Shown here piece after piece: positions 20,051 through 64,000 of a DNA stretch of 64,000 bases; the stretch's first letter is position 1; each line of letters opens with the position of its first letter. The position numbers were made by a program, and so were the translations under genes. Source of the DNA: Chloroflexota bacterium (GTDB lineage: Bacteria; Chloroflexota; UBA6077; SHYK01); assembly GCA_035652535.1 (NCBI GenBank), contig DASRDP010000084.1, positions 2,282 to 66,281 on the forward strand, in the 5' to 3' direction. Below the pieces are notes generated by a model. The model did not search any database. It was not told the DNA's origin and saw only the letters and a program-made list of their open reading frames with translations.

Positions 20051-21211
20051 GTGAGGAATGGATTTCGTGTGTACGATGCGGACACCCACGTGCATGCGAC
20101 CGCGGAGAGCTTGAAACCGCATCTCAGCGCGGCGCTCCGCGAGCGCCTGCCAAATCTCGATGAGTTCGAGTCGCCATTTCGGACTGGCTGGGCCGGCGAG
20201 AAGCTCGAGCCGCCCTACCGCCACCTGTTCCGCTTCGAGCGCCGGGGTGGATGGGGCGGCGGACAGCCCCGGGTCCTGGGCGAGGCGGCTCCGCGAGAAA
20301 ACGCGTCGCGGGAGTTCCAGCACTTCATGGGGCGAGTCTTTCCCACGCCCGGAAGCTCGGATTACGACCCCGATGCCCGCATTCGCGACATGGACCGGGA
20401 AGGGGTAGACGTCCACATGATGGTGCCGGCCGGCCCCGTCGGCCACGCCGATCCGTGGATCGAGATGGAGTTCATTCGTGCCAACCATCGTTATCTCGAC
20501 GCCTTCTGCAGCGAATATCCCCACCGCCTGAAATCACTCATCGTCGTAACGCCGCGGTCCATCGAGGCGTCCGTTGAGGAGATCAAGCGGTGGGCGGGAT
20601 CGCCGTGGGCGGTGGGCGTGCAGCCGCACTTCCCGCTCGACTACCCGCTCGATCATCCGGACATGGACGCCATCTGGGCGGCAGCCGCCGACGCGGACCT
20701 GTGCATCGTGCACCACAGCTTCGCGTGGGGCTATCCGGGGTACCGGGATCTCTGGGACAACCCCTTCCTCGGGCGGATGGGCTCGCACCCATGGGCAGCC
20801 ATGCGCGCCGTGGCGGCCTTCTTCGGTTCGGGGATCATGGACCGCTTCCCGAGCATTCGCTTCGGAATTCTCGAATCGGGTTTCGGCTGGCTGCCGTTCT
20901 GGGCGCGCCGGATGGACGACCAGGCCGTATACATGGGGTACGTCGCGGAGAACCTGCAGCACAAGCTCAGCGAGTACATGACCGGCGGCCGGTTCTTCGC
21001 CAGCATCGTTCTCCACGAGGGGGAGCGAATGGCGCGCATGGTGATGGATGACCTGGGCGATCACGTCCTCATGTTCGGCTCGGACTATCCGCATGCTGAA
21101 TCGCGGTTTCCGGACTCGGCGGACACGGTGCTCGCGTGGTCGTCGCTCACCCCAGAGCGCATCCAGAAGCTGATGTGGGACAACCCGGTTCGCTTCTTTG
21201 GAGAGCCCTGA
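20051..21211 (+). CDS. Amidohydrolase_2 (ACMSD/LigW-type, COG2159) family protein, AH-1
   Basis: GTG 20051 is 4 nt after GAGGAGGA (20039-20046). Motifs: N-terminal YDADTHVH and C-terminal FGSDYPH. Confidence 0.8.
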   Translation: MRNGFRVYDADTHVHATAESLKPHLSAALRERLPNLDEFESPFRTGWAGEKLEPPYRHLFRFERRGGWGGGQPRVLGEAAPRENASREFQHFMGRVFPTPGSSDYDPDARIRDMDREGVDVHMMVPAGPVGHADPWIEMEFIRANHRYLDAFCSEYPHRLKSLIVVTPRSIEASVEEIKRWAGSPWAVGVQPHFPLDYPLDHPDMDAIWAAAADADLCIVHHSFAWGYPGYRDLWDNPFLGRMGSHPWAAMRAVAAFFGSGIMDRFPSIRFGILESGFGWLPFWARRMDDQAVYMGYVAENLQHKLSEYMTGGRFFASIVLHEGERMARMVMDDLGDHVLMFGSDYPHAESRFPDSADTVLAWSSLTPERIQKLMWDNPVRFFGEP

Positions 21212-22920
21212 TGCGCGTCGCCGGATGGCTCTTGGTCGCGCTGCTGGCCGCGAGCTGCGCGGGGCGCGCCGGCGCCCCTCCATCGTCAGCTCGCGAGGCT
21301 TCCGGCGGGGGCCAGGCCACGGCGTCGACGTCGGCTCCCAAGCGCATTGTCGCCGCGATCATGGGTGACCCGTTCACCGTCTACAACAAGCTGAATATCG
21401 CCAACTCCGTGCGCGGGATTTCCGAGATCGAGCGCATGGTCCACGCGGGGCTGAGTGTGACCGACACGACCGGTCAGCTTCGGCCCGAGCTGGCCGAGGC
21501 CGTTCCTTCGACCGACAACGGGCTCTGGCGGCTCCTCCCCGACGGCGGGATGGAGACCGAATGGCACATTCGCAGGGGGACCGTCTGGCAGGACGGCACG
21601 CCCTTTACCGCCGACGATCTCGTCTTTACGGTCGGCGTCTTGACCGACCCGGAGCTTCCGGTCTTTCGGCATCAGGGCTATCCCCTCATCCAGGGAGTCG
21701 AGGCCATCGATCCACAAACGGTCCTGGTGCGTTGGCGCCGACCCTACATCGACGCGGATCATCTCTTCAGCGACTCTATGGGGATGCCGCTCCCCCGCCA
21801 CCTCCTTGCCGACGCATACGCGACCGAGGAGAAGTCCAACTTCACGCAGCTCCCGTTCTGGAGCACGGATTTCGTCGGGCTCGGCCCTTTCAAGCTCAAG
21901 GAATGGGAGCGCGGCAGCCACGTCATCGTCGAGGCGAACGATCGGTTCGTCCTGGGCCGACCGAAGATCGACGAGATCGAGATCCGCACGATCCCCGATA
22001 CGAATGCGATTGTGGCGAGCGTGCTCTCCGGCAACGTCGACGTCGTTCTCGGCCGCGCCCTATCGGCGGACCAGGCGCTGCAGCTCCGCGACCGTTGGCC
22101 GGAGGGAAAGATCGAGACGCCGGTCACGAGTCTGATGATGATGTATCCCCAGCTGCTCAACCCCACGCCGGCGGTCGTGCTCGATCTGACGTTCCGGCGC
22201 TCGGTGCTGGAGGCCATCGACCGACAGCTCCTGGCGGACAGCATCGACTATGGCCTGACGCCGCCGGCCGATGGGTTCCTGGAGCCGACGCGGCAGGAGT
22301 ACAAGGACACCGAGGCGGCGATCGTCCGCTACCCGTACGACCCGCGGCTCGCAGGCCAGCAGATCGAGCGGCTGGGGTATGCGAAGGGGAACGACGGCTT
22401 CTTCCGCGACGCGACCGGCCAGCAGCTTCATCTCGAGATCCGGGCGACAGCGGGGGAGATCAATCCGAAGACGATGTACGCCGTCTCCGACATGCTGCAG
22501 CAGCTCGGCATCGCCGTCGATCCGGTCGTCATCCCGCTGCAGCGGGTCTCTGACGAGGAGTACCGCTCCCAGTTCCCCTCGTTCACTGTCAACGGGCAGC
22601 CCATCGATCTGCGCTTCTTCTCCCGCTTCCACAGCAATCAGGCGCGGCTGGCGGAGAACAACTTCGTGGGCGAAAATCGTTCGCGGTACATGAACCCGGA
22701 CCTGGATGCGCTCATCGACCGTTACCTGGTAACGATCCCGCACGCGGAGCGCGTGGCGCTCGAGAGCGAGATCACCCACCACGTGACCGAGAACCTACCG
22801 CTGCTCCCGCTCTTCTACGACACGTGGCCGGGCGTCACCAGCAAGCGGCTGGCCAACGTTGGCGCGGCGGCGTCGGGCGGCGACGCGGCATGGAACGCGC
22901 GGGAGTGGGACACGGCGTAG
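21211..22920 (+). CDS. Family-5 (peptide/nickel-type) ABC substrate-binding lipoprotein, SBP5-1
   Basis: ATG 21211 shares one nt with the AH-1 stop (TGATG). Signal sequence MRVAGWLLVALLAASC. Family block PDGGMETEWHIRRGTVWQDGTPFTADDLVF ... GRPKIDEIEIRTIPD. Confidence 0.85.
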   Translation: MRVAGWLLVALLAASCAGRAGAPPSSAREASGGGQATASTSAPKRIVAAIMGDPFTVYNKLNIANSVRGISEIERMVHAGLSVTDTTGQLRPELAEAVPSTDNGLWRLLPDGGMETEWHIRRGTVWQDGTPFTADDLVFTVGVLTDPELPVFRHQGYPLIQGVEAIDPQTVLVRWRRPYIDADHLFSDSMGMPLPRHLLADAYATEEKSNFTQLPFWSTDFVGLGPFKLKEWERGSHVIVEANDRFVLGRPKIDEIEIRTIPDTNAIVASVLSGNVDVVLGRALSADQALQLRDRWPEGKIETPVTSLMMMYPQLLNPTPAVVLDLTFRRSVLEAIDRQLLADSIDYGLTPPADGFLEPTRQEYKDTEAAIVRYPYDPRLAGQQIERLGYAKGNDGFFRDATGQQLHLEIRATAGEINPKTMYAVSDMLQQLGIAVDPVVIPLQRVSDEEYRSQFPSFTVNGQPIDLRFFSRFHSNQARLAENNFVGENRSRYMNPDLDALIDRYLVTIPHAERVALESEITHHVTENLPLLPLFYDTWPGVTSKRLANVGAAASGGDAAWNAREWDTA

Positions 22921-24130: not shown

Positions 24131-24350
24131 GGGCCGCGCACCTCATCGATGGGCTCAGGGATCGTCGTGGCAGTGTACGGCATCCCCGGCGCCGTCGCGC
24201 CGCCCGACGGCGCCCCGCGGGCGGATCGGAGCGTCCGTCTCGCCCGGATTCGGCTGGCGCCCGTAGAATAGCGGTGTCGTGGGCGCTCGCGCGCACGCTG
24301 GAGCGCTGGCGAGCCCGCGCGCGGTCGGATGTCACGAGGAGGTGTCGCCG

Positions 24351-25541
24351 ATGTTGACGGCAGAGGAGAACGAACGACTTACCCAGGTTGGGCCTGGCAC
24401 GCCGATGGGGGAGCTTCTTCGGCGGTACTGGCACCCGATCGCTGCGACCCTCGACCTGGACTCGGACCCGGTGCGCCCCGTCCGTCTGCTGGGCGAGAAT
24501 CTGGTCTTGTATCGGGATGAGGCGGGCCGGATCGGGCTCGTCGCCGAGCGGTGCGCCCATCGCGGCATCTCGCTGGCATACGGCATCCCGCAAACGGGTG
24601 GGCTCCGCTGCGCGTATCACGGCTGGACCTACGACCAGCAGGGCCACGTCGTCGACATGCCGTTTGAGCCTGCGTGCCTCCCCCTCAAGATCGCCGCGTA
24701 CCCGGTGGAGGAGTTCGCTGGCCTGATCTGGGCTTACCTCGGACCTCAGCCAGCGCCGCTGGTGCCCCACTGGGACCTGCTCACGCGCGATGATCTGGAC
24801 AAGCAGATCTCGATCCGCGAGCTGCCGTGCAACTGGCTCCAGTGCATGGACAACTCCCTCGACCCGCTCCACTTCGAGCACCTCCACGGGGTATACGGCA
24901 ATTACCTCATGAAGAAGCTGAATCGGCCGCCGATGTTGACCGTCGCGCGGCACATCAAGCTCGATTTCGAGGTGTTCGAGTACGGGATCTACAAGCGGCG
25001 TCTCGTGGAGGGTCAGTCGGAAGACTCGACGGACTGGACGGTTGGCCATCCCATTCTTTTCCCGAACACGCTCGCGCAGGGTGGGCCCGAGCAGATGAGC
25101 ATCCAGATTCGCGTTCCCATCGATGACACGCACACGCTCCACGTCTGCCTCGACGGGATTGCGCCCCTCGGCGGGCGGCCAGCTCGGAAGGATGTGCCCG
25201 TGGTTCACGAGCCCGTCGAGTACGACGAGCTGGGGCGCGTCTTCGCCGACGTCATCGTGAAGCAGGACGAGATGGCGTGGATCGGCCAGGGACCGATCAG
25301 CGACCGCACCGCCGAGCACCTCACGACGGGCGACAAAGGGATCCTGCTGTACCGAAAAGTGATCCTCGAAAATCTCGAGAAGGTCGCCCGCGGCGAAGAC
25401 CCCATGGGGGTGATTCGGGACCCGGCGCAGAACGAGCCCTGCATCCCCATCAAGCAGGGGAGCAATTACACCGCGTTCCGGGTCGGTGTGGGCGACACGT
25501 GGCACAACCTGCCGCGCGAGGCCGTCGGCACAACCGCCTGA
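24351..25541 (+). CDS. Rieske [2Fe-2S] non-haem-iron oxygenase alpha subunit, phthalate-dioxygenase-like family
   Basis: ATG 24351 follows GAGGAGG. N-terminus EENERLTQVGPGTPMGELLRRYWHPIA. Rieske ligands CAHRG ... CAYHGW. Confidence 0.85.
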   Translation: MLTAEENERLTQVGPGTPMGELLRRYWHPIAATLDLDSDPVRPVRLLGENLVLYRDEAGRIGLVAERCAHRGISLAYGIPQTGGLRCAYHGWTYDQQGHVVDMPFEPACLPLKIAAYPVEEFAGLIWAYLGPQPAPLVPHWDLLTRDDLDKQISIRELPCNWLQCMDNSLDPLHFEHLHGVYGNYLMKKLNRPPMLTVARHIKLDFEVFEYGIYKRRLVEGQSEDSTDWTVGHPILFPNTLAQGGPEQMSIQIRVPIDDTHTLHVCLDGIAPLGGRPARKDVPVVHEPVEYDELGRVFADVIVKQDEMAWIGQGPISDRTAEHLTTGDKGILLYRKVILENLEKVARGEDPMGVIRDPAQNEPCIPIKQGSNYTAFRVGVGDTWHNLPREAVGTTA

Positions 25542-26575: not shown

Positions 26576-26686
26576 CTCACGATTCGAGAATCTGCACGGC
26601 TACCTTAGCACGAACGCCTTGGAGCCCCGGACGGGGGATGCATATACTCGGCTGTGCCCGGAGACACGCTGCTTTGGGGGAAATTC

Positions 26687-27670
26687 ATGGCCCGACCACG
26701 CTACGCGCGTCCCGTGACGACGCGCTCCGTCCTGGTCTTTCAGATCGCCGAGGAGCTGGCACGAGACAACACGTGGCCCTATCAGCAGGGCCGCGTGGTG
26801 ATGCGTCCCCAGGGGGGAGACGCGCCGGGCGTCTCGCTCTTCGGGAGTGACAGCCCCGAGGCCATCGACCTCGTCGCGCGCGGGGAGGTGCAGCTCGCCA
26901 TCGTGAACCCAGCGGCTCCCCTCACCCTCGCGTATCGCGGAACGGGGCCTTTCAAGGAGGCCATCCCAGTGCGGACCATCGCCGTCATCCATTCGCGCGA
27001 TGCGTTCGCCTTCGCCGTGAGCGAGAAGTCGGGTATCACGTCCCTGCGCGACATCAAGGAGCGCAAGTATCCACTCAGGGTCACCCTCAGAGGACAGCGC
27101 GACCACGCGAATCACTTCCTCGAGCGGGTCGTGCTCGGAGAGTACGGGATTACCTACGAAGACATCGAGGCGTGGGGAGGGCAGGTTCGATTTGATCCGG
27201 GTCTCCCGACCGGCACGTCAACGTCGGGGGCTGACATCGCGCACTCCCGGATCGATCTGGCGCGCGAGGGCGCCGTCGACGCCATCTTCGACGAGGCGGT
27301 CGGCACGTGGGTCGGGCTCGCGCTCGACGCCGGCATGCGGATCCTGTCGCTCGAGGAGCCGATGGTTCAAAAGCTCGAGGCGATGGGATTTCGGCGATCG
27401 ATCCTGGCAAAGTCGCAGTGGCCCAAGCTTCCGGCGGACGCCCTCAGCCTCGACTTCAGTGGCTGGCCCATTTACACGCACGCCAACGTGCCGGACGACG
27501 TCGTTCGCGCCTTCTGCGCGGCGCTGGAGGCCCGGAAGGACCGCATCCCCTGGCAGGGGGAGGGGCCGCTGCCCCTCGATCGGATGTGCAAAGACTCCCC
27601 CGAGGGGCCCCTCGACGTCCCACTCCACCCTGCCGCGGAGCAATTCTGGCGGGAACGGGGCTACCTGTAG
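26687..27670 (+). CDS. TAXI-like binding-fold protein with no signal peptide (paralogue of 18958..19965)
   Basis: ATG 26687 (the track ORF begins at GTG 26654). Motifs LAIVNPAAPLTLAYRGTGPF and C-terminal VPLHPAAEQFWRERGYL. Confidence 0.55.
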   Translation: MARPRYARPVTTRSVLVFQIAEELARDNTWPYQQGRVVMRPQGGDAPGVSLFGSDSPEAIDLVARGEVQLAIVNPAAPLTLAYRGTGPFKEAIPVRTIAVIHSRDAFAFAVSEKSGITSLRDIKERKYPLRVTLRGQRDHANHFLERVVLGEYGITYEDIEAWGGQVRFDPGLPTGTSTSGADIAHSRIDLAREGAVDAIFDEAVGTWVGLALDAGMRILSLEEPMVQKLEAMGFRRSILAKSQWPKLPADALSLDFSGWPIYTHANVPDDVVRAFCAALEARKDRIPWQGEGPLPLDRMCKDSPEGPLDVPLHPAAEQFWRERGYL

Positions 27671-27675
27671 CTCAG

Positions 27676-29382: not shown

Positions 29383-29737
29383 CCGTGCTCTCCTGCACAA
29401 TCGGCTCGTCGCCGATGCATGCGCCAGCCGGCACAGCGCCGTCCGCGGTGCGGCTTGACGAACCGTGAAAAATTATGCCGTACTGTTACCAGTGGGGCCA
29501 GCCACTCGGTCGCAGAATTGCCCGATTTGTTGCGCGAATCGGTGTGAAACCATCAACACGGGGGCATCCGGACGGACTGATCCACCCGTTCGCAGGGCGC
29601 GCCCCCGCAAAGACGAACCTGTAGCTCAGCTGTGACGCCCGCGGACAATGCACCGTGCTATGCTCCCGCCGTGGTATAAGCTGCCGCCGGGCGACCCCAT
29701 CGTGTTGCGGCAGCGAGCGGCGCTGGGGTTTCACGGA

Positions 29738-39050: not shown

Positions 39051-39093
39051 CTTCTCCCTCCATCTCAGTTCACGCGCGGCGCGTCGACGTGAC

Positions 39094-49675: not shown

Positions 49676-49824
49676 CGAACCTCCTCATCCTTCCTCCCAC
49701 CGCGCACGGTTGGACTTAAGCCTCACAACCGTGTACGATCCCTCGCGAAGGTCGATTGGTTTCTCCATCGATCGATGCCGAGGTCGATGCTGTACTCTCG
49801 TGCAGCGAAGCTGGACATAACGGC

Positions 49825-49852
49825 TTTTCATTGCACGTTGATGCGGTATAAT
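49825..49852 (+). promoter_or_regulatory. Candidate strong promoter for the Tyr-rich protein gene
   Basis: TTTTCA-16 nt-TATAAT (perfect -10 at 49847-49852) in an AT-rich spacer, followed by the tandem SD GAGGAGGCAAGGAG before GTG 49919. Confidence 0.45.
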
Positions 49853-49918
49853 CCGTCCTTCCTCGGTCAGGCGAGGATCTGCGCGTTGGCTGACGACATC
49901 CTAGTGAGGAGGCAAGGA

Positions 49919-52841: not shown

Positions 52842-52857
52842 AAGGAGACGGACAGCC

Positions 52858-53994
52858 GTGAGCATCGTGATCGACACGGACGCCCATTTCTTCCCGGTGG
52901 ACGCCTTCGATGACGAGACCAGTCGCCGCCGATTCCGCAGCCGCTGGCCCCGCGTTCAATTCGACGCTCTGGGCCGCGACTTCATCGTATTCCCGGAGCA
53001 GTTCGATAAGCTGAGCCCGTACCAGCGGAGCATCCCGTGCTCGCTCATCCCCGGCAGGCACCATCCGGGCTACTACGATCCGGCCCCGCGGGAGCAGTGG
53101 CTCGACGAGGCCGGCATCGACATGCAGGTCCTCGTGCCGTCGCCGGCCACGTTCACCTATCACTGCGAGCCCGAGCTGGGCGCCGCCGTGTGCCGCTCGT
53201 ACAACGACGCCATCGCTCGGGTCCTGAAGGCGCACCCGGGGCGCTTCATCGGTCTGGCGGTTCTTCCGATGCAGGACCCGGTCGCCGCGGTCGAGGAGCT
53301 CGATCGCGCGACCCTTGAGCTGGGGATCCACGCGCCCCTCGTGATCTCCAACGTGAACGACAAGAACTTGAACGAGTACGAGTTCTGGCCGGTCTACGAG
53401 CGCATGGAGCTCCTCGGCGTTCCCCTCATCGTGCATGGCAATCGCAACGGTCCGACCGTCGGCCTCGATCGCCTGCCGCACATGCACATGGATAACGCGC
53501 TGGGCTTTCTCTTCGAGGGGTCGTTGGCGATTGCCAGCCTCATCATGTACGGCGTGCTGGACATGTATCCGAAGCTTCGCGTCGGCGTCCTCGAAACGGG
53601 CGCCGGCTATCTCACGTATCTCATGGATCGCCTCGAGGAGATCTACGAGATGGAAACGTTCGGCGGCATCAGCCCGTATCAGGGAAAGCGGGTGAAGGAC
53701 TTGATCCTCAAGCGGCCGAGGGAATACATGGACCAATTCTGGGTCTGCTTCAACGTCGGCGCCGAGGCGCGCAATGTCCCGCACGTCGTTCGCCAGTTCG
53801 GAGCGGACCGGTTCATGGTGAACAGCGACTTTCCCCACGGAGTCGGTGGCGCCGGCGAAGGAATGGTGGACATCGTGAACGGCATCGATGAGATCAGCCG
53901 GTCCGAAAAGGACACGCTGCTCGGTCTGGCCGCGTGCGAGCTGTTCGCCATCGATCCAGAGACCCGCCAGCAGAGGCGGCCGGCCGCCGTGTAG
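52858..53994 (+). CDS. Amidohydrolase_2 family protein, AH-3
   Basis: GTG 52858 follows AAAGGAGA and lies 16 nt after the SBP5-4 stop. Motifs: N-terminal IDTDAHFF and C-terminal VNSDFPH. Confidence 0.8.
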   Translation: MSIVIDTDAHFFPVDAFDDETSRRRFRSRWPRVQFDALGRDFIVFPEQFDKLSPYQRSIPCSLIPGRHHPGYYDPAPREQWLDEAGIDMQVLVPSPATFTYHCEPELGAAVCRSYNDAIARVLKAHPGRFIGLAVLPMQDPVAAVEELDRATLELGIHAPLVISNVNDKNLNEYEFWPVYERMELLGVPLIVHGNRNGPTVGLDRLPHMHMDNALGFLFEGSLAIASLIMYGVLDMYPKLRVGVLETGAGYLTYLMDRLEEIYEMETFGGISPYQGKRVKDLILKRPREYMDQFWVCFNVGAEARNVPHVVRQFGADRFMVNSDFPHGVGGAGEGMVDIVNGIDEISRSEKDTLLGLAACELFAIDPETRQQRRPAAV

Positions 53995-54069
53995 CGCGGC
54001 GCCGGGGACCGCCCAGCCCAACTTTCGCCCGGATTTCAGTTCCCATGACCGATACGACAAGGAGCGCAG

Positions 54070-54816
54070 ATGGCATCAAACGGAAAAGTCGCGCTGGTGA
54101 CGGGAGCGGACTCGGATGTCGGCGCGGCGATCGTCCAGCGGTTCGCCCGCGAGGGATTCCAGGTCGCCGCGTGCGGAGCTTCTCGCGAGCGCGCGAAGCC
54201 GGCGCTGGAGGGGGCGGCGGCTCACGGAGCCGCCGCCGAGTTCTTTGAGCTCGACGTTCGCAAGGAAAGCGACGCGGCGCGGTTCGTCCAAGGCGCGGTC
54301 GACCGTTTCGGCAGGATCGACGCAATCGTGAACTGCGGCGCCTCGCGGCGGATCATCGGCACGATCATGGACATCTCCGACGAGGACTTCGACGAGGAGA
54401 TGGCGGCGGACCTGAAATCTGTCCTTTACGTCTCGCGGGCCGCGATCCCAACGATCGCGAAGGGGGGCGGCGGCGCGATCGTCAATATGTCGTCCATCGC
54501 CCGCGCCGGCGTGCGAGGACGAGCGCTTCGATCGGCCAGCAAGGCGGCGTTGAGCGCGCTCACGCGGGCGATGGCGCTCGACCACGGGCGGGACGCAATC
54601 CGCGTCAACGCCGTCCTGCTTGGGCCCACCCTGTCACGAGACGCCCACTTCCCTCCGGAGCAGCTCGCTCGCATGAAGGCGGAGGCTGCCCTCGGCGAGC
54701 TGCACACAGCGGAAGATGTGGCCGCGGCCGTGTATTTCTTCGCGTCGGATGACGCGCGGCACATCACGGGGGCGCTCCTTCCGCTGGACGCTGGACGGTC
54801 TCTCGCGAGCTTTTGA
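54070..54816 (+). CDS. Short-chain dehydrogenase/reductase (SDR) family protein with atypical motifs
   Basis: 248 aa with the SDR fold pattern. It has TGADSDVG in place of TGxxxGxG and RSASK in place of YxxxK. Confidence 0.75.
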   Translation: MASNGKVALVTGADSDVGAAIVQRFAREGFQVAACGASRERAKPALEGAAAHGAAAEFFELDVRKESDAARFVQGAVDRFGRIDAIVNCGASRRIIGTIMDISDEDFDEEMAADLKSVLYVSRAAIPTIAKGGGGAIVNMSSIARAGVRGRALRSASKAALSALTRAMALDHGRDAIRVNAVLLGPTLSRDAHFPPEQLARMKAEAALGELHTAEDVAAAVYFFASDDARHITGALLPLDAGRSLASF

Positions 54817-54914
54817 TCCGGCGAGCGGCCACCCAGACGGGCAGCGCGTTGTTCACCTGCGAGCGTCACCGCGCACGCGCGCTATGATGTGCTAGAGACC
54901 GCAAGGAGGCTCCC

Positions 54915-56084
54915 GTGAACCGACTCGGGTTGTTTCTGACCACTGCGATCGTGCTGCTCATCGCCGCGTGTGGCGGAAAGACGGGCGCCCCGCCGACCGG
55001 CGGCCTCGCCGCGCCCGCGCGCGAGTCCGACGATCCCCAGGCGCGGTGGGCCAAGACGCTGGATGCGGCGAAGCAGGAAGGCAAGGTCGTGGTCGTGACC
55101 CACACGAACCTGTACTACCAGAAAGAGATCGAGAAGTTCGGCGAGAAGTACCCGGACATCCCGGTCGAGCAGGTGTCGATGCGTCCGAGCGAGTTCACGC
55201 CCAAGGTGATCACCGAGCAGCAGAATGGGATCTACGGATACGACGTCTGGGTATCGCCGACCAGCAATATGGTGGAGACCGTCGTCCCCGCTGGCGGCTT
55301 CGAGAGCCTGATCCCCTACCTGATCCTCCCCGAGGTGACCGACTCGACGCAGTACCGCGGGGGCAAGCCGCTCTACGTGAGCTCCGAGCCCTACGTCATG
55401 GCGTATCAGGGCAACGTGACGACGAACGTCTGGGTGAACCGCGACCTGCTGCCGGCGAGCGAGTTCAACACCCTCGATCAGCTCGTCGACCCGAAGCTCA
55501 AGGGCAAGATCGCGATCCGCACACCCAGCGCGCCGCACGCCGGGTCGCTCACGCTGACGGGCCTTCTTCACAACAAGGGACAGGCGTTTCTGGATCAACT
55601 CCTGATCGACCAGCAGCCGGTCTTCATCGACAACGCCCGATTGATGACTCAAGACCTGATCAATGGGAAGTACCCGGTGGCCATCGGCATCGATGGAGAG
55701 ACGATGGACGCCTGCCAGCGGGAGGGCGGCTGCAAGAGCATGCAGCAGCTCACCGGGTATGAGTACATGCTGAGCTACGGGGTCGGCATCTTGAAGAACC
55801 CGCCGCATCCGAACGCGGCGGCCGTGTTCCTCAACTGGTTCCTCTCCAAGGAGGGCCAGCAGGCCTTCGTGCAGAGCGTGGAAGCCACGACCCCGCCGCC
55901 CTACGACCAGGCGCAGAGCATCCGCGTCGATGTGGACCCGAACCCCGACGCCATCAAGGATCAGGCGATGCCCGACTACGACCACCTCGAGAAGTACAGT
56001 CTCCAGGGCATGGAGGCCGGGAGGCCGGAGATGCAGGCGGTCCTGGCGGCGTACAAAAAGGTCGAAGAGAGCGGAGGCAGGTAG
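54915..56084 (+). CDS. ABC transporter substrate-binding lipoprotein (family 1, iron(III)/FbpA-like)
   Basis: GTG 54915 follows AAGGAGG. Lipobox LIAAC. Immediately followed by a fused two-domain permease. Confidence 0.7.
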   Translation: MNRLGLFLTTAIVLLIAACGGKTGAPPTGGLAAPARESDDPQARWAKTLDAAKQEGKVVVVTHTNLYYQKEIEKFGEKYPDIPVEQVSMRPSEFTPKVITEQQNGIYGYDVWVSPTSNMVETVVPAGGFESLIPYLILPEVTDSTQYRGGKPLYVSSEPYVMAYQGNVTTNVWVNRDLLPASEFNTLDQLVDPKLKGKIAIRTPSAPHAGSLTLTGLLHNKGQAFLDQLLIDQQPVFIDNARLMTQDLINGKYPVAIGIDGETMDACQREGGCKSMQQLTGYEYMLSYGVGILKNPPHPNAAAVFLNWFLSKEGQQAFVQSVEATTPPPYDQAQSIRVDVDPNPDAIKDQAMPDYDHLEKYSLQGMEAGRPEMQAVLAAYKKVEESGGR

Positions 56085-56122
56085 CGGTGGCTTCGACGCT
56101 GTCCGTCGGCGGCTGAGCCGCC

Positions 56123-57865
56123 ATGTCCGTCGCCACCGCCGTACGCCCTGCGTTTCAGCGGCGATTGCCCCATCTCCGTCTCGAGATCTCAGCCGTCGCC
56201 TACGCGGCGCTTCTGGCGCTCGTCGCGTTCGTCGTGCTCTATCCGATCCTGCTCCTGGCTATCAATAGCTTTCGTGTCGGTCCGTTCGGGCAAGCTGGCG
56301 CCTGGGGAGTCGACAACTGGCAGGCGGCCTTCAGCCAGCCCCGGATCGTCGCCGCGCTGCGCAACACCGTCAGCCTCGCCATCACCCGCCAGGCCATCGC
56401 GATCGGGCTCGGCGTCAGCATCGCGTGGCTCCTCGCGCGAACGAATCTCCCGGGCAGATCCTGGCTCGAGGTGTGCTTCTGGTTTGCGCTCCTCCTTCCC
56501 AGCCTCCCGGTTCTGCTCGGCTGGATCTTGCTCCTCGATGGCCACCACGGGATCCTTCTCAACGCGATCCGGAACATCGTGCCGGGGTTCTCGTTCGACA
56601 TCTATTCCTGGTGGGGCATCGTCGTCGCCCACCTGGTCATCAACCTCGTCGCCTTAAAGGTCTTCCTGCTGACTCCGGCCTTCCGAAACATGGATTCTTC
56701 TCTCGAGGAGGCCTCGCGCGCCGCAGGGGCCAGCATGCCGCACACGCTCTTCCGCATTGTCGTCCCGTTGATGACCCCAACGATCCTGTTCGTCACGCTG
56801 CTGGGCCTCATCCGATCGATGCAGTCCTTCGAGATCGAGCTGATCCTGGGCGGCGCATCGAAGATCGACGTGTACAGCACGCTCATCTACCGGCAGGTCA
56901 TGCAGTCGCCGCCCGAATACGGCAAGGCGACGGCACTCAGCATGGTGATCCTCTCGGCCCTCGTGCCGCTCATCGCGCTCCAGCAGTGGATCGCCGGCCG
57001 GCGCAGCTACACCACGGTGTCCGGGAAGTACACCAACCGCCTGTTCGACCTCGGGGTCATGCGCTGGCCGCTGTTCTGCGTCGTCGCTGGCATGCTCATC
57101 GTGATGATCGTCCTGCCCATCCTGTTCATGCTGGTCGGGACCTTCATGAAGGTCTTCGGACAGTTCGATCTCCCCGATCCGTGGACGCTCAACAATTGGC
57201 GGCGCATCCTCACGGATCGGCAGCTCGTCAAGGGGTTGGTCAACACGCTCGTGATCGCCGCGGGTGCGACGATCTTCTCGGTCGTGCTCTTCACCGTCAT
57301 CGCCTACGTATCGGTCCGCACGCGTTTCGTTGGCCGTCGGCTGCTGGATATGCTCACCTGGATTCCCAGCACGGTGCCCGGCATCGTGACGAGCCTCGGC
57401 CTCCTGTGGCTCTTTATCGGAACGCCCATCTTTCGGCCGCTCTACGGGACCGTCTGGATCCTGATCATCGCCCTCGGTTTCGCCGGGCTGACGCTGGGCG
57501 TGCAGCTGATCAAGACGAGCATGATGCAGCTTGGCGCCGAGCTGGAAGAGGCGTCCTGGGCGTCCGGCGCCGGCCGCATCTACACCCTCCGTCGGGTCGT
57601 GCTCCCCCTCATCGCCCCCACGATCGCTGTGGTCGCGCTCCAGAACTTCGGGGCCGCGGCGTCCAGCGTGAGCCTCGTCGCGCTGCTCGGATCGGCCAAC
57701 AACAAGCCGCTCTCGTTGGTGCAGCTCGAGTACATGGACACGGGGCTCTTTGAGCCGGCGACAGTCGTCGGCGTCATCATCTTTTTGTTGACGATCGGCG
57801 CCGCTGTCTTGGCCCGCGCCGTGAGCGTTCGCACCGGCCTCGCCCGATTCGAGGGTCAGCGCTAA
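56123..57865 (+). CDS. ABC transporter permease, duplicated (two BPD_transp_1 domains, FbpB/AfuB-like)
   Basis: 580 aa with about 12 TM segments and two EAA loops (LEEASRAAGAS...RIVVPL and LEEASWASGAG...RVVLPL). Confidence 0.85.
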   Translation: MSVATAVRPAFQRRLPHLRLEISAVAYAALLALVAFVVLYPILLLAINSFRVGPFGQAGAWGVDNWQAAFSQPRIVAALRNTVSLAITRQAIAIGLGVSIAWLLARTNLPGRSWLEVCFWFALLLPSLPVLLGWILLLDGHHGILLNAIRNIVPGFSFDIYSWWGIVVAHLVINLVALKVFLLTPAFRNMDSSLEEASRAAGASMPHTLFRIVVPLMTPTILFVTLLGLIRSMQSFEIELILGGASKIDVYSTLIYRQVMQSPPEYGKATALSMVILSALVPLIALQQWIAGRRSYTTVSGKYTNRLFDLGVMRWPLFCVVAGMLIVMIVLPILFMLVGTFMKVFGQFDLPDPWTLNNWRRILTDRQLVKGLVNTLVIAAGATIFSVVLFTVIAYVSVRTRFVGRRLLDMLTWIPSTVPGIVTSLGLLWLFIGTPIFRPLYGTVWILIIALGFAGLTLGVQLIKTSMMQLGAELEEASWASGAGRIYTLRRVVLPLIAPTIAVVALQNFGAAASSVSLVALLGSANNKPLSLVQLEYMDTGLFEPATVVGVIIFLLTIGAAVLARAVSVRTGLARFEGQR

Positions 57866-57916
57866 GACGCTATACTGGGCTTCGTTCACCATGGGGCAGG
57901 TTTGGGAGGCCGAGCG

Positions 57917-59188
57917 ATGTTGAATCATGAAGAGAATGAGATGATCACCCGCGTAGGGCCGGGCACACCGATGGGTTCGGTGCTGCGCCGCTATTGGCTG
58001 CCGGCGCTCCTCGCGTCCGATCTTCCGGAGCCGGACTGCGCGCCGATGCGTGTGCGCCTCCTCGGTGAGGATCTGGTCGCGTTTCGGGACTCGTCGGGCC
58101 GGTTGGGATTGCTCGACGACTACTGTCCGCACCGTTGCGCATCCCTCTTCCTCGGCCGCAATGAAGAGAACGGCCTCCGCTGCGTCTATCACGGATGGAA
58201 GTTCGACGTTGACGGCAACTGCGTCGACATGCCCACCGAGCCGGTGGACAGCCGATTCAAAGAGAAGGTCCACGCGACCGCCTATCCGCTGGTGGAGCTG
58301 GCGGGCGTGCTCTGGGCGTACATGGGGCCGCCCGAACAGCGGCCGGAGCTTCCGGCCATGGAGTGGACGAGGGCACCGGCGAGCCACCGGTTCGTCTCGA
58401 GAACCCACGAGTACTGCAACTTTGTCCAGGCCATCGAGGGGGGCATCGATACGGCGCACTCCTCGTTCCTGCACCGCAATGACATCTCCGATCGTCTGGC
58501 GTTCCGAACCATGGACGGCGCGCCGACCCTCGAAGTGGAGAAGACGGATTACGGGTTCCGTTACGCGAGCCTGCGCGACATCGGAGACGATGGCATCTAT
58601 CTTCGCGTGTACCAGTTCTTCATGCCCTTCCAGCAGTATCGATCGCACCAGCTCGAGGGCCGGCGCGGCGCCGGCAAGACCGCGGTGCCTCGGCTCCAGG
58701 GGCACATGTGGGTGCCCATAGACGACGAAAACACGTGCGTCTACAACTTCATCCTGTCCGTCGACGATGACAAGCCCCTCACGCCCGAGTTCATTGAAGA
58801 GGCGGAGACCCACGCGGGCCGCAACCCCCTGACGGGCGAGACGATGACCCGGCACCGCACGCGCGCCAACGATTGGCTCATCGATCGCGCGATCCAGCGC
58901 ACACGGACGTTCACCGGCATCACCGGGCTGAACACTCAGGACCTCGCGGTTCAGGAGAGCATGGGGCGGGTCGTGGATCGCTCGCGCGAGCATCTGGGGA
59001 GCACCGATCGGGCCGTGATCGCCTTCCGGCAGATCATGCTGGACGCGGTCAAGAACGTCGCGGAGGGTATCGATCCGCCCGGCGTGAATCCGGCCAGTTA
59101 TCGCGGCGTTCGAGCGGCGGACGTCATACTTCCCAAGGGCGTTCGATGGCAGGATGCGGCGGAGGCGGAGCTGATGGCGCGGCATTAA
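57917..59188 (+). CDS. Rieske [2Fe-2S] non-haem-iron oxygenase alpha subunit, phthalate-dioxygenase-like family (paralogue of 24351..25541)
   Basis: ATG 57917 follows GGGAGG. N-terminus EENEMITRVGPGTPMGSVLRRYWLPA. Rieske ligands CPHRC ... CVYHGW. Confidence 0.85.
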   Translation: MLNHEENEMITRVGPGTPMGSVLRRYWLPALLASDLPEPDCAPMRVRLLGEDLVAFRDSSGRLGLLDDYCPHRCASLFLGRNEENGLRCVYHGWKFDVDGNCVDMPTEPVDSRFKEKVHATAYPLVELAGVLWAYMGPPEQRPELPAMEWTRAPASHRFVSRTHEYCNFVQAIEGGIDTAHSSFLHRNDISDRLAFRTMDGAPTLEVEKTDYGFRYASLRDIGDDGIYLRVYQFFMPFQQYRSHQLEGRRGAGKTAVPRLQGHMWVPIDDENTCVYNFILSVDDDKPLTPEFIEEAETHAGRNPLTGETMTRHRTRANDWLIDRAIQRTRTFTGITGLNTQDLAVQESMGRVVDRSREHLGSTDRAVIAFRQIMLDAVKNVAEGIDPPGVNPASYRGVRAADVILPKGVRWQDAAEAELMARH

Positions 59189-59297
59189 TGGATCGGCTGC
59201 CATGCAGTTCGCCATTGCTCTGGGTGCGCCGCTCGGGTAGCGCGGCTGCGGTGCGGCGGAGGCGTGCCCCCCGCCGCGCCGGACGAACGAGGATAGT

Positions 59298-61040
59298 GTG
59301 CCCTCGCTCATGAGGAGACCGTGGGCGGACCGCATCCGGCTGCGCGCCGCGACGGTTGCGGCGCTGATCGTGCTGGTGGCCGGCTGCCAGAGTGCGCCGA
59401 CTGGGCCGCCGGGTCAGCGCGCGCCGGCGGGCGGCGAGCCGCAGCCCTCGCGGAATCTGGTCATGCTGATCCGCGTCGAGCCCGCGAGCCTTGCGTCCAA
59501 GTCGCTCCAGCAAGCGGGCACGATTCTCACGTCCACGCGCCGGCTGTTCAACGCGACGCTTGGCCTGCTCGACGACCACGGGGAGGTCATCCCGTACCTC
59601 GCCGCGGAGCTCCCGCGACTCAATACGGCGACGTGGAAGGTGTTTCCTGACGGCCGGATGGAGACGACGTACACGCTCCGCCCCGCTCTCACCTGGCACG
59701 ACGGGAGTCCGCTGGACGCGGAGGACTTTGTGTTTTCGTACCGCGTCTACTCGGCGCCCGATCTCGGGCTTGCCACCGGTGCGCCGCAGAACCTCATCGA
59801 GGACGTGGTTGCCGAGGACGCGCGGACCGTGATCATTCGGTGGCGGCAGTCGTACGCGAACGCGGGACTCCTGACCGAGGACTTCCCGCCGCTGCCCCGC
59901 CACATCCTGCAAGATTCCTTCGACGGCCGCGCTGCGCCCGATGCCTTCAGCGGAGACGCTTTCTGGACGCGGGACTACGTGGGTGCGGGCCCGTACCGGC
60001 TCGAGCGGTGGGAGCCGGGCGCCTTCATCGAATCCGTCGCCTTCGACGGCCACGTCCTCGGGCGACCGCGTATCGACCGAATCACCATTCGATGGAGTAG
60101 CGACCCCAACGCATCCCTCGCTGTCATGCTGGCCGGCGACGCGCAGCTCTCCGCGGATTCGTCGCTCCAGTTCCAGCAGGGGCTATTGCTGAAGAACCAG
60201 TGGACGAGCCAGAAGGCAGGCACCGTGCTGTTCAAGCCGGATCTGTTCCGCGGAGCGGCGGTGCAGCTTCGTCCCGAGCTGACCACCCCGCGGGCGCTCC
60301 TCGACGCTCGCGTGCGCCGAGCGCTGGCTTTCGCCGTCGATAAACAAACGCTGAACGACGTCCAGTTCGAGGGGAACGGCTTCATGGCCGATGGCATCAT
60401 TCCTCCGACGGTTTGGTACGGGGCCGATCTCGACCGCGCCGTCCAGAAGTACCCGCTCGACACGCGGAAGAGCGAGGCGCTGATGGCCGATGCCGGCTTC
60501 ACCAAAGGCGCTGATGGCGTCTATGCGAGCCCGACGGACGGTCGTTTCGCCCCTGAGGTGCGGACCAACGCCAGCGCGTTCTTCGAAGCCGAGATGTCGA
60601 CGCTGGCGAGCGGGTGGCGAGGCGCCGGATTCGATTTCACCGAGTATGTCAATCCCGCGGCCCTCGTCCAGGACGCGCAGGTGCGTGCGACGTTCCCTGG
60701 CCTATTCATCTTCAGCCAGGGCCTGGGCGAGGCCGCGCTCGTCGATTACAACAGCGCGGGCATCCCGCGACCGGAGAACCGATGGGTAGGAAGCAACCGC
60801 GGCGGCTGGTCGAATCCGGATTTTGACCGGCTAGCGGAGACCGTCAATACCACGCTGGATCGCACCGAGCGCGCGCAGACCTTTGTCGCGATGCAGCGGA
60901 TCTTCAGCGAGGAGCTGCCGGTCATCCCGCTCTATTTCCAGCCCAGCGTCACGGGCTTCGTCAGCGGGCTGGTCGGACCGGGGAACGTGCCGCCCGATAC
61001 CGCCATCAACTGGAACGTCTATACGTGGGAATTCAGGTAG
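59298..61040 (+). CDS. Family-5 ABC substrate-binding lipoprotein, SBP5-5
   Basis: Start at GTG 59298 or ATG 59310. Lipobox LVAGC. Family block PDGRMETTYTLRPALTWHDGSPLDAEDFVF ... GRPRIDRITIRWSSD. Confidence 0.85.
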   Translation: MPSLMRRPWADRIRLRAATVAALIVLVAGCQSAPTGPPGQRAPAGGEPQPSRNLVMLIRVEPASLASKSLQQAGTILTSTRRLFNATLGLLDDHGEVIPYLAAELPRLNTATWKVFPDGRMETTYTLRPALTWHDGSPLDAEDFVFSYRVYSAPDLGLATGAPQNLIEDVVAEDARTVIIRWRQSYANAGLLTEDFPPLPRHILQDSFDGRAAPDAFSGDAFWTRDYVGAGPYRLERWEPGAFIESVAFDGHVLGRPRIDRITIRWSSDPNASLAVMLAGDAQLSADSSLQFQQGLLLKNQWTSQKAGTVLFKPDLFRGAAVQLRPELTTPRALLDARVRRALAFAVDKQTLNDVQFEGNGFMADGIIPPTVWYGADLDRAVQKYPLDTRKSEALMADAGFTKGADGVYASPTDGRFAPEVRTNASAFFEAEMSTLASGWRGAGFDFTEYVNPAALVQDAQVRATFPGLFIFSQGLGEAALVDYNSAGIPRPENRWVGSNRGGWSNPDFDRLAETVNTTLDRTERAQTFVAMQRIFSEELPVIPLYFQPSVTGFVSGLVGPGNVPPDTAINWNVYTWEFR

Positions 61041-62257: not shown

Positions 62258-62371
62258 CGGCGTCCTCCGGATGAGATTCAGGGCTCCATCATATCGGCTC
62301 GCGGGCAAGCGGACCGAGTCGGCAACGGGTGTTGATCCATCGCTGCTATAATGCCGCGCCCTGGAGGACCA

Positions 62372-64000
62372 ATGCTTCTCGAAGTCTGCCCGCCGCGCCG
62401 ATGGTGGAGCGTGCTTCTTCTGATCATGGCGCTGTTCACCGCGTGCGCGGAGCCGGCGCCCGGCGCACCTACCGGGCAGTCGGGCAAGGTGCCGGGGACG
62501 ACTGCGGCCAAGCGCGCTACGACGATCACCGTTGCCGTGGCCGGCAACGTTCCCAATATGGGACTCGTCGGCCTGGCGAGCACGACCACCGGCGGCTGGT
62601 TCTCCATCGCAGAAGTCCATTCGAATGCGCTGATCACATCGGACGTGCACTCACGCCAGCCGGTTGGGCGCCTGATCGACCGCGTCCCCTCTCTCGACAA
62701 CGGGGACATCTCGCTCCTGCCGGACGGCCGGATGCGAGTCATCTATCACGTTCGCCCGGGTGTAACCTGGCACGATGGCCAGCCATTCACCGCTCAGGAC
62801 CTCGTGTTCTCCTATCGGTTCAACACCGATGCGGGGATCCCGACGATTCAATCGGACGTGACCCGAATGCTCGCCTCGGCGGAGGCCCCCGACGATGCAA
62901 CGTTCGTGCTGAATTTCAAAGGCCCCTACTACCGCGCCGACCAGCTCGGTTTGCGCATGTTCTGGCCGTATCCGCGCCACATCCTGGAGCCAGCTTACGA
63001 GCGGTATCTGGAGAGCACGAACCCAGACGACATCGTCAACCTCCCGTACTGGACGTCGGAGTACATCCATCTCGGACCGTTCAGGCTGACGTCGTTCGAC
63101 TCGGCAGGGCCGATCGAGTTCCAGGCGTACGATGGCTACTTTCTCGGTCGACCGAAGGTGGACACGATCCGCGTGCTGGTCTTTAGCGACTTGAATACGC
63201 TGTACGCCAATATCCAGTCGGGCACCGTCGATATCGTGCCGGAAACCGTGTTGCAGCCGGAGCTTGGCTTTCAGCTCATGGACCAGTGGGCGTCGACAGG
63301 AGGAGGCTCGGTCTTCGTGACCAAGAGCGCCCAGCGCTTCCTCTCGCCACAGGAGCGGCCGGAGGTTCAGAGCGAGCCGTCCATGTCCGACTTTCGTGTT
63401 CGCGCGGCCCTCTACGAGGGGCTGGACCGCGTCGCTTTGTCGGAGGGGCTACAGGCCGGACACGGCGAGCTGGCGGCGTGGGCGCTCCTGTGGGAGGGTG
63501 AGCCGCTGTACGACGCGACGAAGGACGCGTTTCGCCGCTACGCGTATGACCCCGAGCGCGCGCAGGCGACGCTTCGCGAGGCCGGCTGGGTCGCCGGTCC
63601 GGATGGAGCGTTGCGGAGCAGCGCGGACGGACGCCGCATGCGGACGTCCATCACCGCGACGCCCGGCCGCATCGAGCGCGAAGCCAACGCGTTCGCCGAT
63701 TACTGGCGGCGCCTCGGCATCGACGTCGAGCAGATCACGGTTCCGGCGGCGCAAATCCGCAACGCGGAGACACGGGCGCTCTACCCGGGTTGGGAGGCGA
63801 GCGCGCAGGGTGGGGGCGACGAGATCCTGGGACGACTCGAAGGGCCCGCCGCGAGCCCGCAGAACCGGTGGACCGGCAATCGCGGCGGATACGACGATCC
63901 GCGCGCCCAGGAGCTGATCGCCAGCTTCCGATCGAGCTTGCGCCGCGACGATCAGCTCCAGGCGATGAAGGCGATCAGTGACTTCGTGGCCGACACCCTC
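62372..64000 (+). CDS. Family-5 ABC substrate-binding lipoprotein, SBP5-6 (3' end outside the window; absent from the ORF track)
   Basis: ATG 62372 follows TGGAGGA. My own translation is open for 543 codons to the window end. Lipobox LFTAC. Family block PDGRMRVIYHVRPGVTWHDGQPFTAQDLVF ... GRPKVDTIRVLVFSD. An extended -10, TGCTATAAT, lies at 62344-62352. Confidence 0.85.
   Translation, partial: MLLEVCPPRRWWSVLLLIMALFTACAEPAPGAPTGQSGKVPGTTAAKRATTITVAVAGNVPNMGLVGLASTTTGGWFSIAEVHSNALITSDVHSRQPVGRLIDRVPSLDNGDISLLPDGRMRVIYHVRPGVTWHDGQPFTAQDLVFSYRFNTDAGIPTIQSDVTRMLASAEAPDDATFVLNFKGPYYRADQLGLRMFWPYPRHILEPAYERYLESTNPDDIVNLPYWTSEYIHLGPFRLTSFDSAGPIEFQAYDGYFLGRPKVDTIRVLVFSDLNTLYANIQSGTVDIVPETVLQPELGFQLMDQWASTGGGSVFVTKSAQRFLSPQERPEVQSEPSMSDFRVRAALYEGLDRVALSEGLQAGHGELAAWALLWEGEPLYDATKDAFRRYAYDPERAQATLREAGWVAGPDGALRSSADGRRMRTSITATPGRIEREANAFADYWRRLGIDVEQITVPAAQIRNAETRALYPGWEASAQGGGDEILGRLEGPAASPQNRWTGNRGGYDDPRAQELIASFRSSLRRDDQLQAMKAISDFVADTL

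Follow-up and report, generated by a model that had tools for sequence, protein, structure and literature searches.

Orphan family-5 solute-binding lipoproteins beside Rieske and Amidohydro_2 genes in an uncultured Chloroflexota lineage

Introduction

What do solute-binding lipoproteins serve when their genes lie in numbers on a genome and no gene for a cognate transporter lies among them? The question is raised by 64,000 nucleotides of a soil Chloroflexota bacterium (assembly GCA_035652535.1, contig DASRDP010000084.1, positions 2,282 to 66,281; the whole of this stretch is called the window), which hold six paralogous genes for family-5 solute-binding proteins (SBPs), here named SBP5-1 to SBP5-6. 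A first reading of the window from its letters alone (the original prediction) had likened the six genes to the orphan receptor expansions known for Bug/TctC proteins and had proposed that their products share one distant transporter or act as sensors. In soils and aquifers, members of the Chloroflexota that have not been cultured are abundant, and little is known about their uptake of carbon; a search of the literature found no published account of this SBP5 expansion.

The analysis presented here shows that the separation from transporter genes is a property of the whole subfamily to which the six receptors belong. The most informative feature of the locus, which the original prediction had missed, is the coupling of the receptor genes to genes for Amidohydro_2 (PF04909) proteins and Rieske oxygenases.

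Results

Membership of the six proteins in family 5 is certain. All of them match PF00496 (SBP_bac_5) with 151-184 bits as compared with a gathering score of 32.4, and with the start codons of the original prediction the genes lie exactly where it had placed them (Table 1). The proteins align end to end at 29-45% identity, and each carries, as predicted, a signal peptide ending in a lipobox cysteine, which is followed by a tether rich in proline, serine, alanine and glycine; this cysteine is conserved without exception in alignment A1 and in at least 90% of the sequences of alignment A4. The conserved sequence blocks that had been pointed out are common to all six in the alignment (PDGxMETxWxIR....WxDGxPFTxxDLxF, GRPKID... 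and WNxxxW), the first of them being essentially the general signature region of family 5, because PDB entry 2d5w aligns there too.

The fold, for which a structure prediction had been suggested as a check, is equally certain. SBP5-4 was modelled with AlphaFold2 on the basis of 42 family sequences; the model is of high confidence (pLDDT 91.6, pTM 0.84) and shows a cluster-C SBP fold with a visible signal helix and a disordered linker at residues 22-39. Foldseek relates the model with probability 1.00 to the cluster-C SBPs AppA, OppA, NikZ, YliB and DppA, with AppA and Thermus thermophilus OppA as the top matches, at an identity of no more than 23% to any structural match. The best TM-scores, up to 0.71/0.82, go to unliganded YliB, NikA and DppA, so that the model is taken to represent the open form. 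None of the six proteins comes near the cutoff of an NCBIfam equivalog, be it that for OppA, DppA, NikA, GsiB, CntA or others (best scores 26-120 bits versus cutoffs of 393-1098). Neither family membership nor fold fixes the ligand.

The subfamily that comprises the six genes is large and confined to a single lineage of uncultured Chloroflexota. A protein search gave more than 1000 matches, the 120th best of which still scored 534 bits, and SBP5-1 scores 818 bits against the family hidden Markov model (HMM). Subfamily clusters at 43-49% identity number in the hundreds, the named ones among them being proteins from metagenome-assembled genomes (MAGs) of Chloroflexi/Chloroflexota. When one genome per GTDB species was scanned with an alignment of the four closest window paralogues, relatives at 30% identity or above were found only in five uncultured Chloroflexota MAGs, in many loci per MAG, the copy numbers being at least 26, 15, 12, 11 and 9 as counted in the part of their DNA that was fetched; more distant matches at 24-27% identity occur in Bradyrhizobium, Bosea, Rhizobium and others. 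Each window copy is closer to a relative in another assembly (47-67% identity) than to its siblings in the window (29-44%), which indicates that the copies diverged long ago. For example, SBP5-6 is 63% identical to the protein encoded at positions 4772-6649 of locus L007 of the MAG CoA_1_bin.38, and the closest relative of SBP5-5 (locus L031, 9540-11348) likewise lies behind a Rieske gene.

With respect to transport genes, a motif scan, phmmer and Pfam all came back empty for a Dpp/Opp permease or ATP-binding cassette (ABC) ATPase in the window, as the original prediction had stated. No six-frame open reading frame (ORF) of the 64 kb combines a Walker A motif with LSGGQ, and phmmer with DppDF, SsuB, DppB, DppC and SsuC as seeds found nothing in the window at E<=1. 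A single protein with BPD_transp_1 domains, a fused permease of PhnU2/FbpB-like type, occurs among the approximately 50 Pfam-scanned gene products. Its description as the only permease holds for ABC permeases and does not extend to transporters in general, as three proteins of the major facilitator superfamily (MFS) and one MgtE are also encoded.

The likeness to the Bug/TctC expansions drawn in the original prediction holds, and the orphan status extends beyond this stretch. Genes were called in 43 Chloroflexota loci and the window, together 542 kb of DNA centred on SBP5 genes, with phmmer seeds verified against Pfam. The census gave 85 SBP5, 34 Rieske/LigXa-like and 25 Amidohydro_2 genes, compared with four BPD permeases and two ABC ATPases; two ABC translocon loci thus stand against 85 receptor genes. 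Every SBP5-like ORF of all fetched loci was then scored with the family HMM, and full-length members with at least 400 bits (n=69), from uncultured Chloroflexota loci, were set against distant canonical SBP5 proteins with less than 250 bits (n=49). A Dpp-type permease lies within 3 kb of none of the 69 family members but of 41 of the 49 canonical genes, and the contrast persists among genes with at least 3 kb of flanking sequence on both sides (0/31 versus 39/44). In five loci with independent Pfam annotation, 13 SBP_bac_5 proteins are accompanied by zero BPD_transp_1 and zero ABC_tran domains. Orphan status, at 9-26 or more copies per MAG, is thus a property of the subfamily as a whole.

While transporter genes are missing, certain enzyme genes recur. 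An Amidohydro_2 or Rieske gene is found within 400 bp of 29 of the 69 family members and of 3 of the 49 canonical SBP5 genes, a seven-fold difference. Direct adjacency to such a gene applies to 35 of all 85 SBP5 genes, as compared with 25.0 +/- 3.3 upon shuffling of the genes within loci. In the window, four of the SBP5 copies have an Amidohydro_2 or Rieske gene no more than 400 bp away, two of them in tight operons: the stop codon of Amido2-a overlaps the ATG of SBP5-1 (CTGATG; shared TGATG), and SBP5-4 and Amido2-c are separated by a spacer of 16 nt that contains the Shine-Dalgarno sequence AAGGAGA. SBP5-2 and Amido2-b are divergent with a spacer of about 120 bp, and Rieske-b ends 109 nt upstream of SBP5-5. 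Signal peptides were not found on the neighbouring enzymes.

The three PF04909 proteins of the window, for which an NCBIfam search yielded no equivalog, are not of one kind. Amidohydrolase-related dinuclear oxygenases (AROs), which include PtmU3, AibH2, SfbO and the PDB entries 8sm8 and 8sm9, have recently been defined (PMC10811679); their signature is an N-terminal D-x-H and, at least 200 residues further on, a C-terminal D-x-P-H-x-[D/E] within the PF04909 fold (PMC13154177). Amido2-a has its best PDB matches to the AROs 8sm8, PtmU3 and 8sm9 and possesses both motifs (DTH at position 19, DYPHAE at position 353), so that its annotation as a hydrolase is probably wrong and an Fe/Fe or Mn/Fe monooxygenase is its more likely identity. 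The best PDB matches of Amido2-b are again AROs (8sm9 and PtmU3), and D-T-H is present, but its DYPHTG departs from the signature at the last position. Amido2-c matches ACMSD (1e-27) and LigW (1e-20) best and has D-A-H and DFPHGV, which differs from the strict motif at the last position as well. Across the lineage, the C-terminal ARO motif is present in 9 of the 25 Amidohydro_2 proteins. A small Rieske ferredoxin (less than 250 aa), a neighbour that is frequent for low-potential AROs but not obligatory, was not found in the window, where the Rieske proteins are alpha subunits of 420-428 aa with a LigXa_C domain. Rieske-b matches the PDB entries 9ina, 7fhr and 7fjl with E values of 1e-94 to 1e-86 and Rieske-a matches 7fhr with 2e-53, by which both are assigned to the phthalate-family alpha-only Rieske oxygenases.

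A Pfam census of 105 other neighbours of the SBP5 genes showed VOC/glyoxalase proteins, Cupin_2, molybdenum hydroxylase (MoCoBD), UbiD, dienelactone hydrolase, LigB, GMC and thiamine pyrophosphate enzymes. The families present point to the oxidative catabolism of aromatic or other recalcitrant organics and not to the use of peptides. In two independent assemblies, family SBP5 genes lie beside genes of cobalamin biosynthesis and cobalt chelation (CobN, CobA/CobO/BtuR, CobD, CbiA; L003 6201-19879 and L091 1479-6598), and one subclade might serve the uptake of a metal or corrinoid instead of carbon substrates.

A Dpp-type translocon does exist in a related genome. In the MAG Dino_bin42 (locus L085 1-14035, WHTR01000016.1) the genes follow in the order Rieske, SBP5 (535 aa), DppB, DppC, fused DppDF (with two ABC_tran and two oligo_HPY domains), LigB, LigA and a family SBP5 (583 aa), with a Rieske gene and another family SBP5 on the opposite strand. 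The translocon's own SBP5 of 535 aa is shorter, DppA/NikA-like and 25% identical to the window family. The position of a Dpp translocon amid Rieske and LigB/LigA extradiol dioxygenase genes is an unusual setting for a 'peptide' transporter. In other metagenomes, Dpp operons (DppB 56-60% identical) are flanked by an extra SBP5, paired Amidohydro_2 genes and Cupin_2. DppBC and the fused DppDF of Dino_bin42 are regarded as a candidate for a shared transporter.

Another arrangement was observed in the MAG SMAG_U4683 (L040 1684-6913), where two family SBP5 genes are followed tightly and on the same strand by genes for an SsuB-like ATPase and an SsuC-like permease. As these belong by annotation to the NitT/TauT (SsuBC-like) type, they were rejected as a Dpp-type partner, and the arrangement, seen once among the 43 loci, stands as an unexplained oddity. 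To our knowledge, family-5 SBPs have not been reported to use this transporter class.

Table 1. Receptor, enzyme and transport genes of the window, with positions counted from its first nucleotide
Feature	Position	Strand	Product	Supporting match
SBP5-1	21211..22920	+	family-5 solute-binding lipoprotein, 569 aa	PF00496 163 bits; lipobox LAASC
SBP5-2	30480..32207	-	family-5 solute-binding lipoprotein, 575 aa	PF00496 184 bits; lipobox IVTGC
SBP5-3	39094..40809	-	family-5 solute-binding lipoprotein, 571 aa	PF00496 157 bits; lipobox AATGC
SBP5-4	51117..52841	+	family-5 solute-binding lipoprotein, 574 aa	PF00496 162 bits; lipobox LLAAC
SBP5-5	59298..61040	+	family-5 solute-binding lipoprotein, 580 aa, divergent subclade	PF00496 153 bits; lipobox LVAGC
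SBP5-6	62372..64000	+	family-5 solute-binding lipoprotein, cut by window end	PF00496 151 bits; lipobox LFTAC
Amido2-a	20027..21211	+	PF04909 protein	PF04909 74 bits
Amido2-b	32330..33538	+	PF04909 protein	PF04909 106 bits
Amido2-c	52858..53994	+	PF04909 protein	PF04909 76 bits
Rieske-a	24279..25541	+	phthalate-dioxygenase-like Rieske oxygenase	Rieske and LigXa_C domains
Rieske-b	57902..59188	+	phthalate-4,5-dioxygenase-like Rieske oxygenase alpha subunit	Rieske and LigXa_C domains
MFS	37833..39116	-	MFS transporter, directly downstream of SBP5-3	PF07690 142 bits
Dehydrogenase	54070..54816	+	short-chain dehydrogenase	adh_short_C2 171 bits
SBP_bac_1	54915..56084	+	SBP_bac_1/8/11-type lipoprotein, originally called FbpA-like	lipobox LIAAC; no NCBIfam match
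Permease	56123..57865	+	fused two-domain ABC permease, PhnU2/FbpB-like	BPD_transp_1 x2; TIGR03262 PhnU2 149 bits, below cutoff
TAXI-like	18958..20085	-	TAXI/NMT1_3-like protein	PF16868 56 bits; TIGR02122 59 bits, cutoff 84
TAXI-like	26654..27670	+	TAXI/NMT1_3-like protein	PF16868 51 bits; TIGR02122 43 bits, below cutoff
MoeA fusion	8834..10765	-	MoeA fused to PBP_like domain	PF12727 247 bits; MoeA_N, MoCF, MoeA_C

Discussion

With better than even confidence, the orphan genes are considered to encode substrate-specific, membrane-tethered uptake receptors that are co-expressed with the cytoplasmic enzyme of the first catabolic step and deliver their substrates to one or a few generic translocons of the Dpp type, encoded at a remote site. 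The lipoproteins would be tethered to the outer face of the cytoplasmic membrane, each paralogue most likely binding a different small organic substrate, which would be passed on to a generic Dpp/Opp-type ABC translocon (DppB, DppC, fused DppDF) encoded elsewhere in the genome. The receptor gene lies beside, and would often be co-transcribed with, the gene for the cytoplasmic enzyme that is the first to act on the compound once imported, this enzyme being a phthalate-dioxygenase-like Rieske oxygenase or a PF04909 protein that may be either an ARO-type dinuclear oxygenase or an ACMSD/LigW-like decarboxylase. With receptor and first enzyme adjoining and the translocon shared, substrate-specific induction would therefore switch both on together. 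Docking of the orphan SBP5 proteins on a Dpp-type translocon, and the presence of such a translocon in the genome from which the window derives, are presumed in this scheme, and aromatic or other carboxylated organics, and not peptides, are the probable ligands.

Several observations weigh against this explanation. Every locus of the census was selected for holding an SBP5 gene, and the MAGs are incomplete. The nominal Fisher P values for the permease contrast (5e-24) and for the enzyme contrast (8e-6) overstate the independence of the data, as some 20 canonical loci represent orthologous operons of Bradyrhizobium, and the excess of adjacency over the shuffled loci is moderate, at approximately three standard deviations. 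The single distant transporter of the original prediction has found a candidate in Dino_bin42, but none was found for the window's own genome, of which 64 kb were covered; moreover, use of the Dino_bin42 translocon by the orphan receptors is an assumption, because that operon comes with its own SBP5 from another subfamily. Among solved structures, the closest relatives are binders of oligopeptides or nickel, and no residue-level sign of a non-peptide ligand was obtained.

The pairing of individual receptors with individual enzymes is likewise loose. In a mirror-tree (Mantel) comparison of SBP identity with partner-enzyme identity, r was -0.03 for Amidohydro_2 partners and 0.17 for Rieske partners, the latter value being attained in 31 of 500 permutations. 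Nor can the family of the neighbouring enzyme be predicted from SBP similarity, the mean identity being 0.344 both in the same-partner and in the different-partner group, and the partner enzyme family is common to 12 of 30 SBP nearest neighbours. Fixed, co-inherited SBP-enzyme modules were dropped as a model, as SBP identity does not track partner-enzyme identity. In neighbourhoods and operons the coupling is real, yet it is fluid in evolution; alternatively, orthologous pairs escaped detection because the sample is too sparse and reaches too deep.

Among the alternatives, the most tenable, although an unlikely one, is that these are ordinary receptors for oligopeptides, dipeptides or nickel whose multiplication has broadened the range of peptides open to one Opp/Dpp system, with the enzyme neighbours a coincidence. 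The solved structures closest by sequence and fold (2d5w and 1xoc) do bind peptides, the source annotations read 'peptide/nickel transport system substrate-binding protein', and peptide systems with several SBPs are well documented. Yet the proteins share no more than 23% identity with any solved peptide binder and score far below the cutoffs of the NCBIfam peptide/nickel equivalogs (e.g. 26-120 bits versus 393-1005). Their neighbours are oxygenases, decarboxylases and ring-cleavage enzymes and not peptidases; enzyme adjacency seven-fold above that of canonical SBP5 genes, together with two window pairs that are translationally or operonically coupled, argues against coincidence.

A sensory function, as alternatively proposed in the original prediction, is more improbable still. 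On this view the SBP, once it holds its ligand, would bind to a membrane histidine kinase, chemoreceptor or cyclase and thereby induce the neighbouring catabolic genes. Signalling that depends on SBPs is established, for example for E. coli DppA with Tap (PMC8050422); a response-regulator gene (29648-30409) adjoins SBP5-2, and dCache/HAMP kinases or cyclases are encoded in the related loci L091, L092 and L040. However, a sensor protein is neither consistently adjacent to the receptor genes nor among the recurrent neighbour families, so that the gene context lends the idea no support; the kinases of the window are more than 15 kb away, and dozens of paralogues would each need a partner.

The family-wide absence of a translocon could also be read to mean that the lipoproteins have left transport altogether and put the SBP5 fold to another use, as mycobacterial LpqW does, perhaps serving as scaffolds outside the cytoplasm or binding or sequestering soil organics. 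LpqW (2grv) is indeed among the Foldseek matches, with a TM-score of 0.49 as opposed to up to 0.71 for true transport SBPs. Operon coupling to cytoplasmic enzymes would be sensible only if the ligand enters the cell, and family members flank the Dpp translocon in L085, which together leave this alternative with little probability.

Only a slight chance is given to a non-canonical membrane partner, be it an MFS carrier, in a secondary transport dependent on an SBP as in TRAP/TTT systems, or an ABC pair of the NitT/TauT type. The MFS gene directly after SBP5-3, with ORFs that overlap if the ATG at 39116 is used, and the two family members placed tightly before the SsuB/SsuC-like genes in L040 would be compatible with such a partner, but the latter arrangement occurs once in the 43 loci, and adjacency to an MFS gene is rare. 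SBP5 and MFS as a conserved pair were rejected, since the two adjoin only sporadically and the closest relative of SBP5-3 has no MFS gene next to it. We know of no SBP5-MFS or SBP5-NitT system. That the six copies are collapsed or chimeric assembly duplicates of one gene, finally, was already doubted in the original prediction and is effectively refuted, as no support for it was found in the window, where base composition is uniform, as the copies are only 29-45% identical, each having flanking genes of its own and, in another assembly, an orthologue that is closer, and as the multi-copy pattern recurs in independent ENA, JGI, NCBI and Logan assemblies.

Uptake receptors that converge on few translocons, the explanation favoured here, would not be without precedent. 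Bordetella pertussis possesses 76 Bug genes and two tctAB sets, and some orphan Bug proteins are encoded beside decarboxylase genes, e.g. those for arylmalonate decarboxylases (PMC5812351). As in these expansions of Bordetella and Cupriavidus, receptor paralogues are numerous in the Chloroflexota lineage, most of them without a nearby transporter and some next to catabolic enzymes, and the SBP5-centred loci covered hold few membrane components; the sharing of translocators would follow the same logic. The likeness is, however, organisational only: the receptors are cluster-C SBPs of PF00496 and not TctC (PF03401) proteins, their presumed partner is a primary ABC importer instead of a secondary TTT carrier, and the host belongs to a monoderm-type phylum with lipoprotein anchors, represented by partial genome data, and is not a betaproteobacterium with a periplasm.

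Sharing of a translocon is also familiar within the ABC importers. Orphan SBPs that use a remote or shared translocon are common, a logic established as 'homes for the orphans' (Thomas 2010, cited in PMC3223731), and in Pseudomonas aeruginosa DppA1-5 share the one Dpp system DppBCDF (PMC12728205). Other multi-receptor Opp/Dpp systems are Borrelia OppA1-5, pneumococcal AmiA/AliA/AliB and E. coli MppA with OppBCDF. Several family-5 SBPs, some of them encoded off-operon, serve one translocon with different ligands in these systems (PMC12728205; PMC11192437; PMC3173086), as is presumed for the present family; there, however, two to five receptors bind peptides or peptide-like ligands, whereas here at least 9-26 per MAG occur and lie by oxygenase or decarboxylase genes. 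Among individual proteins, Bacillus subtilis AppA (1xoc) and T. thermophilus 2d5w are the best sequence and structure matches and agree with the window proteins in their three-domain cluster-C fold and in the signature block of family 5, but they are permease-linked peptide binders with only 22-23% identity to the window family.

A generic component that is encoded once is, in another form, a feature of Gram-positive sugar importers as well. In these systems one ATPase such as MsiK or MsmK energises many permeases and is encoded away from the substrate operons. The pair of SBP_bac_1 lipoprotein and permease in the window is similarly devoid of an ATPase gene. Only the ATPase is shared in the MsiK/MsmK case, however, whereas the entire membrane translocon would be shared by the orphan receptors.

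The principle of many receptors for few translocons is thus known; new are the protein family, the phylum and the scale, and also the systematic occurrence next to genes for Rieske and ARO/ACMSD-type enzymes. If the proteins are non-peptide uptake receptors, the label 'peptide/nickel' is wrong for hundreds of metagenomic clusters and distorts inferences on peptide use. The pattern also carries the concept over from TTT/Bug systems to the ABC importers of a monoderm-type phylum. The substrates of AROs are largely unknown (PMC10811679), and the receptor-oxygenase pairs offer a handle, as the ligand of an SBP would point to the substrates of the adjoining orphan Rieske or ARO enzyme. In a more far-reaching scenario, put forward tentatively and doubtful in its full extent, a subfamily of soil and groundwater Chloroflexota would have left peptide and nickel binding behind and would deploy dozens of receptors per cell for diverse non-peptide organics, e.g. 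aromatic or substituted carboxylic acids derived from humic matter or lignin, each receptor co-regulated with a first-attack oxygenase (Rieske/ARO) or decarboxylase and all converging on one or a few Dpp-type translocons located in LigAB clusters. Family 5 would in that case gain a new class of ligands, and heterogeneous soil carbon could be scavenged in a modular manner by a receptor and a first enzyme with a shared pore.

Other features of the window

Genes in the window were called by third-position GC and the products scanned against Pfam. The G+C content lies uniformly at about 65-71%, and long spurious ORFs are frequent as a consequence.

SBP5-4 opens a co-directional cluster on the plus strand (51117-61040) that also contains the short-chain dehydrogenase gene. 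Between this gene and Rieske-b lie the genes for the SBP_bac_1 lipoprotein and the PhnU2/FbpB-like permease, without an ATPase gene. In the related locus L008, a matching SBP_bac_1 gene directly adjoins the Rieske orthologue and there is no permease, which suggests that other SBP families of this lineage may also be uncoupled from transporters.

The other binding folds counted in the original prediction, namely the two TAXI-like proteins, the SBP_bac_1 lipoprotein and the MoeA fusion, are real, but it is uncertain whether the TAXI/NMT1_3-like proteins are transport receptors. Both pass the Pfam cutoff; with longest-ORF starts neither has an evident signal peptide or lipobox, and the window holds no DctQM-type membrane gene. 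The fusion of MoeA to a PBP_like domain stands apart from the SBP5 genes. It belongs to a cluster related to tungsten or molybdenum cofactors (8834-15079) together with a second MoeA, a multi-[4Fe-4S] protein and an aldehyde:ferredoxin oxidoreductase; the ORF of the multi-[4Fe-4S] protein (12354-13910) overlaps that of the oxidoreductase (13163-15079) by about 750 nt.

An EmrAB-like efflux operon (44296-47285) comprises a MarR regulator, a membrane-fusion protein of the HlyD type and an MFS protein of the 14-transmembrane class, the start of which is probably near 45700, as the long ORF start overlaps the HlyD gene. Between SBP5-5 and SBP5-6 lies a Meth_synt_2 (MetE C-terminal-like) ORF on the minus strand (61058-62650). 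In its longest form it overlaps the 5' end of SBP5-6; the first approximately 130 residues look non-coding, and the true start is probably further downstream.

A protein with FN3 domains (49775-50917) shows an atypical codon-position composition, with a GC1 of 0.48 as compared with about 0.65-0.72 in its neighbours, and a CAP/SCP-domain protein of 574 aa is encoded at 27676-29400. The two are likely to be secreted or exposed at the surface and to have no connection with the SBP5 genes.

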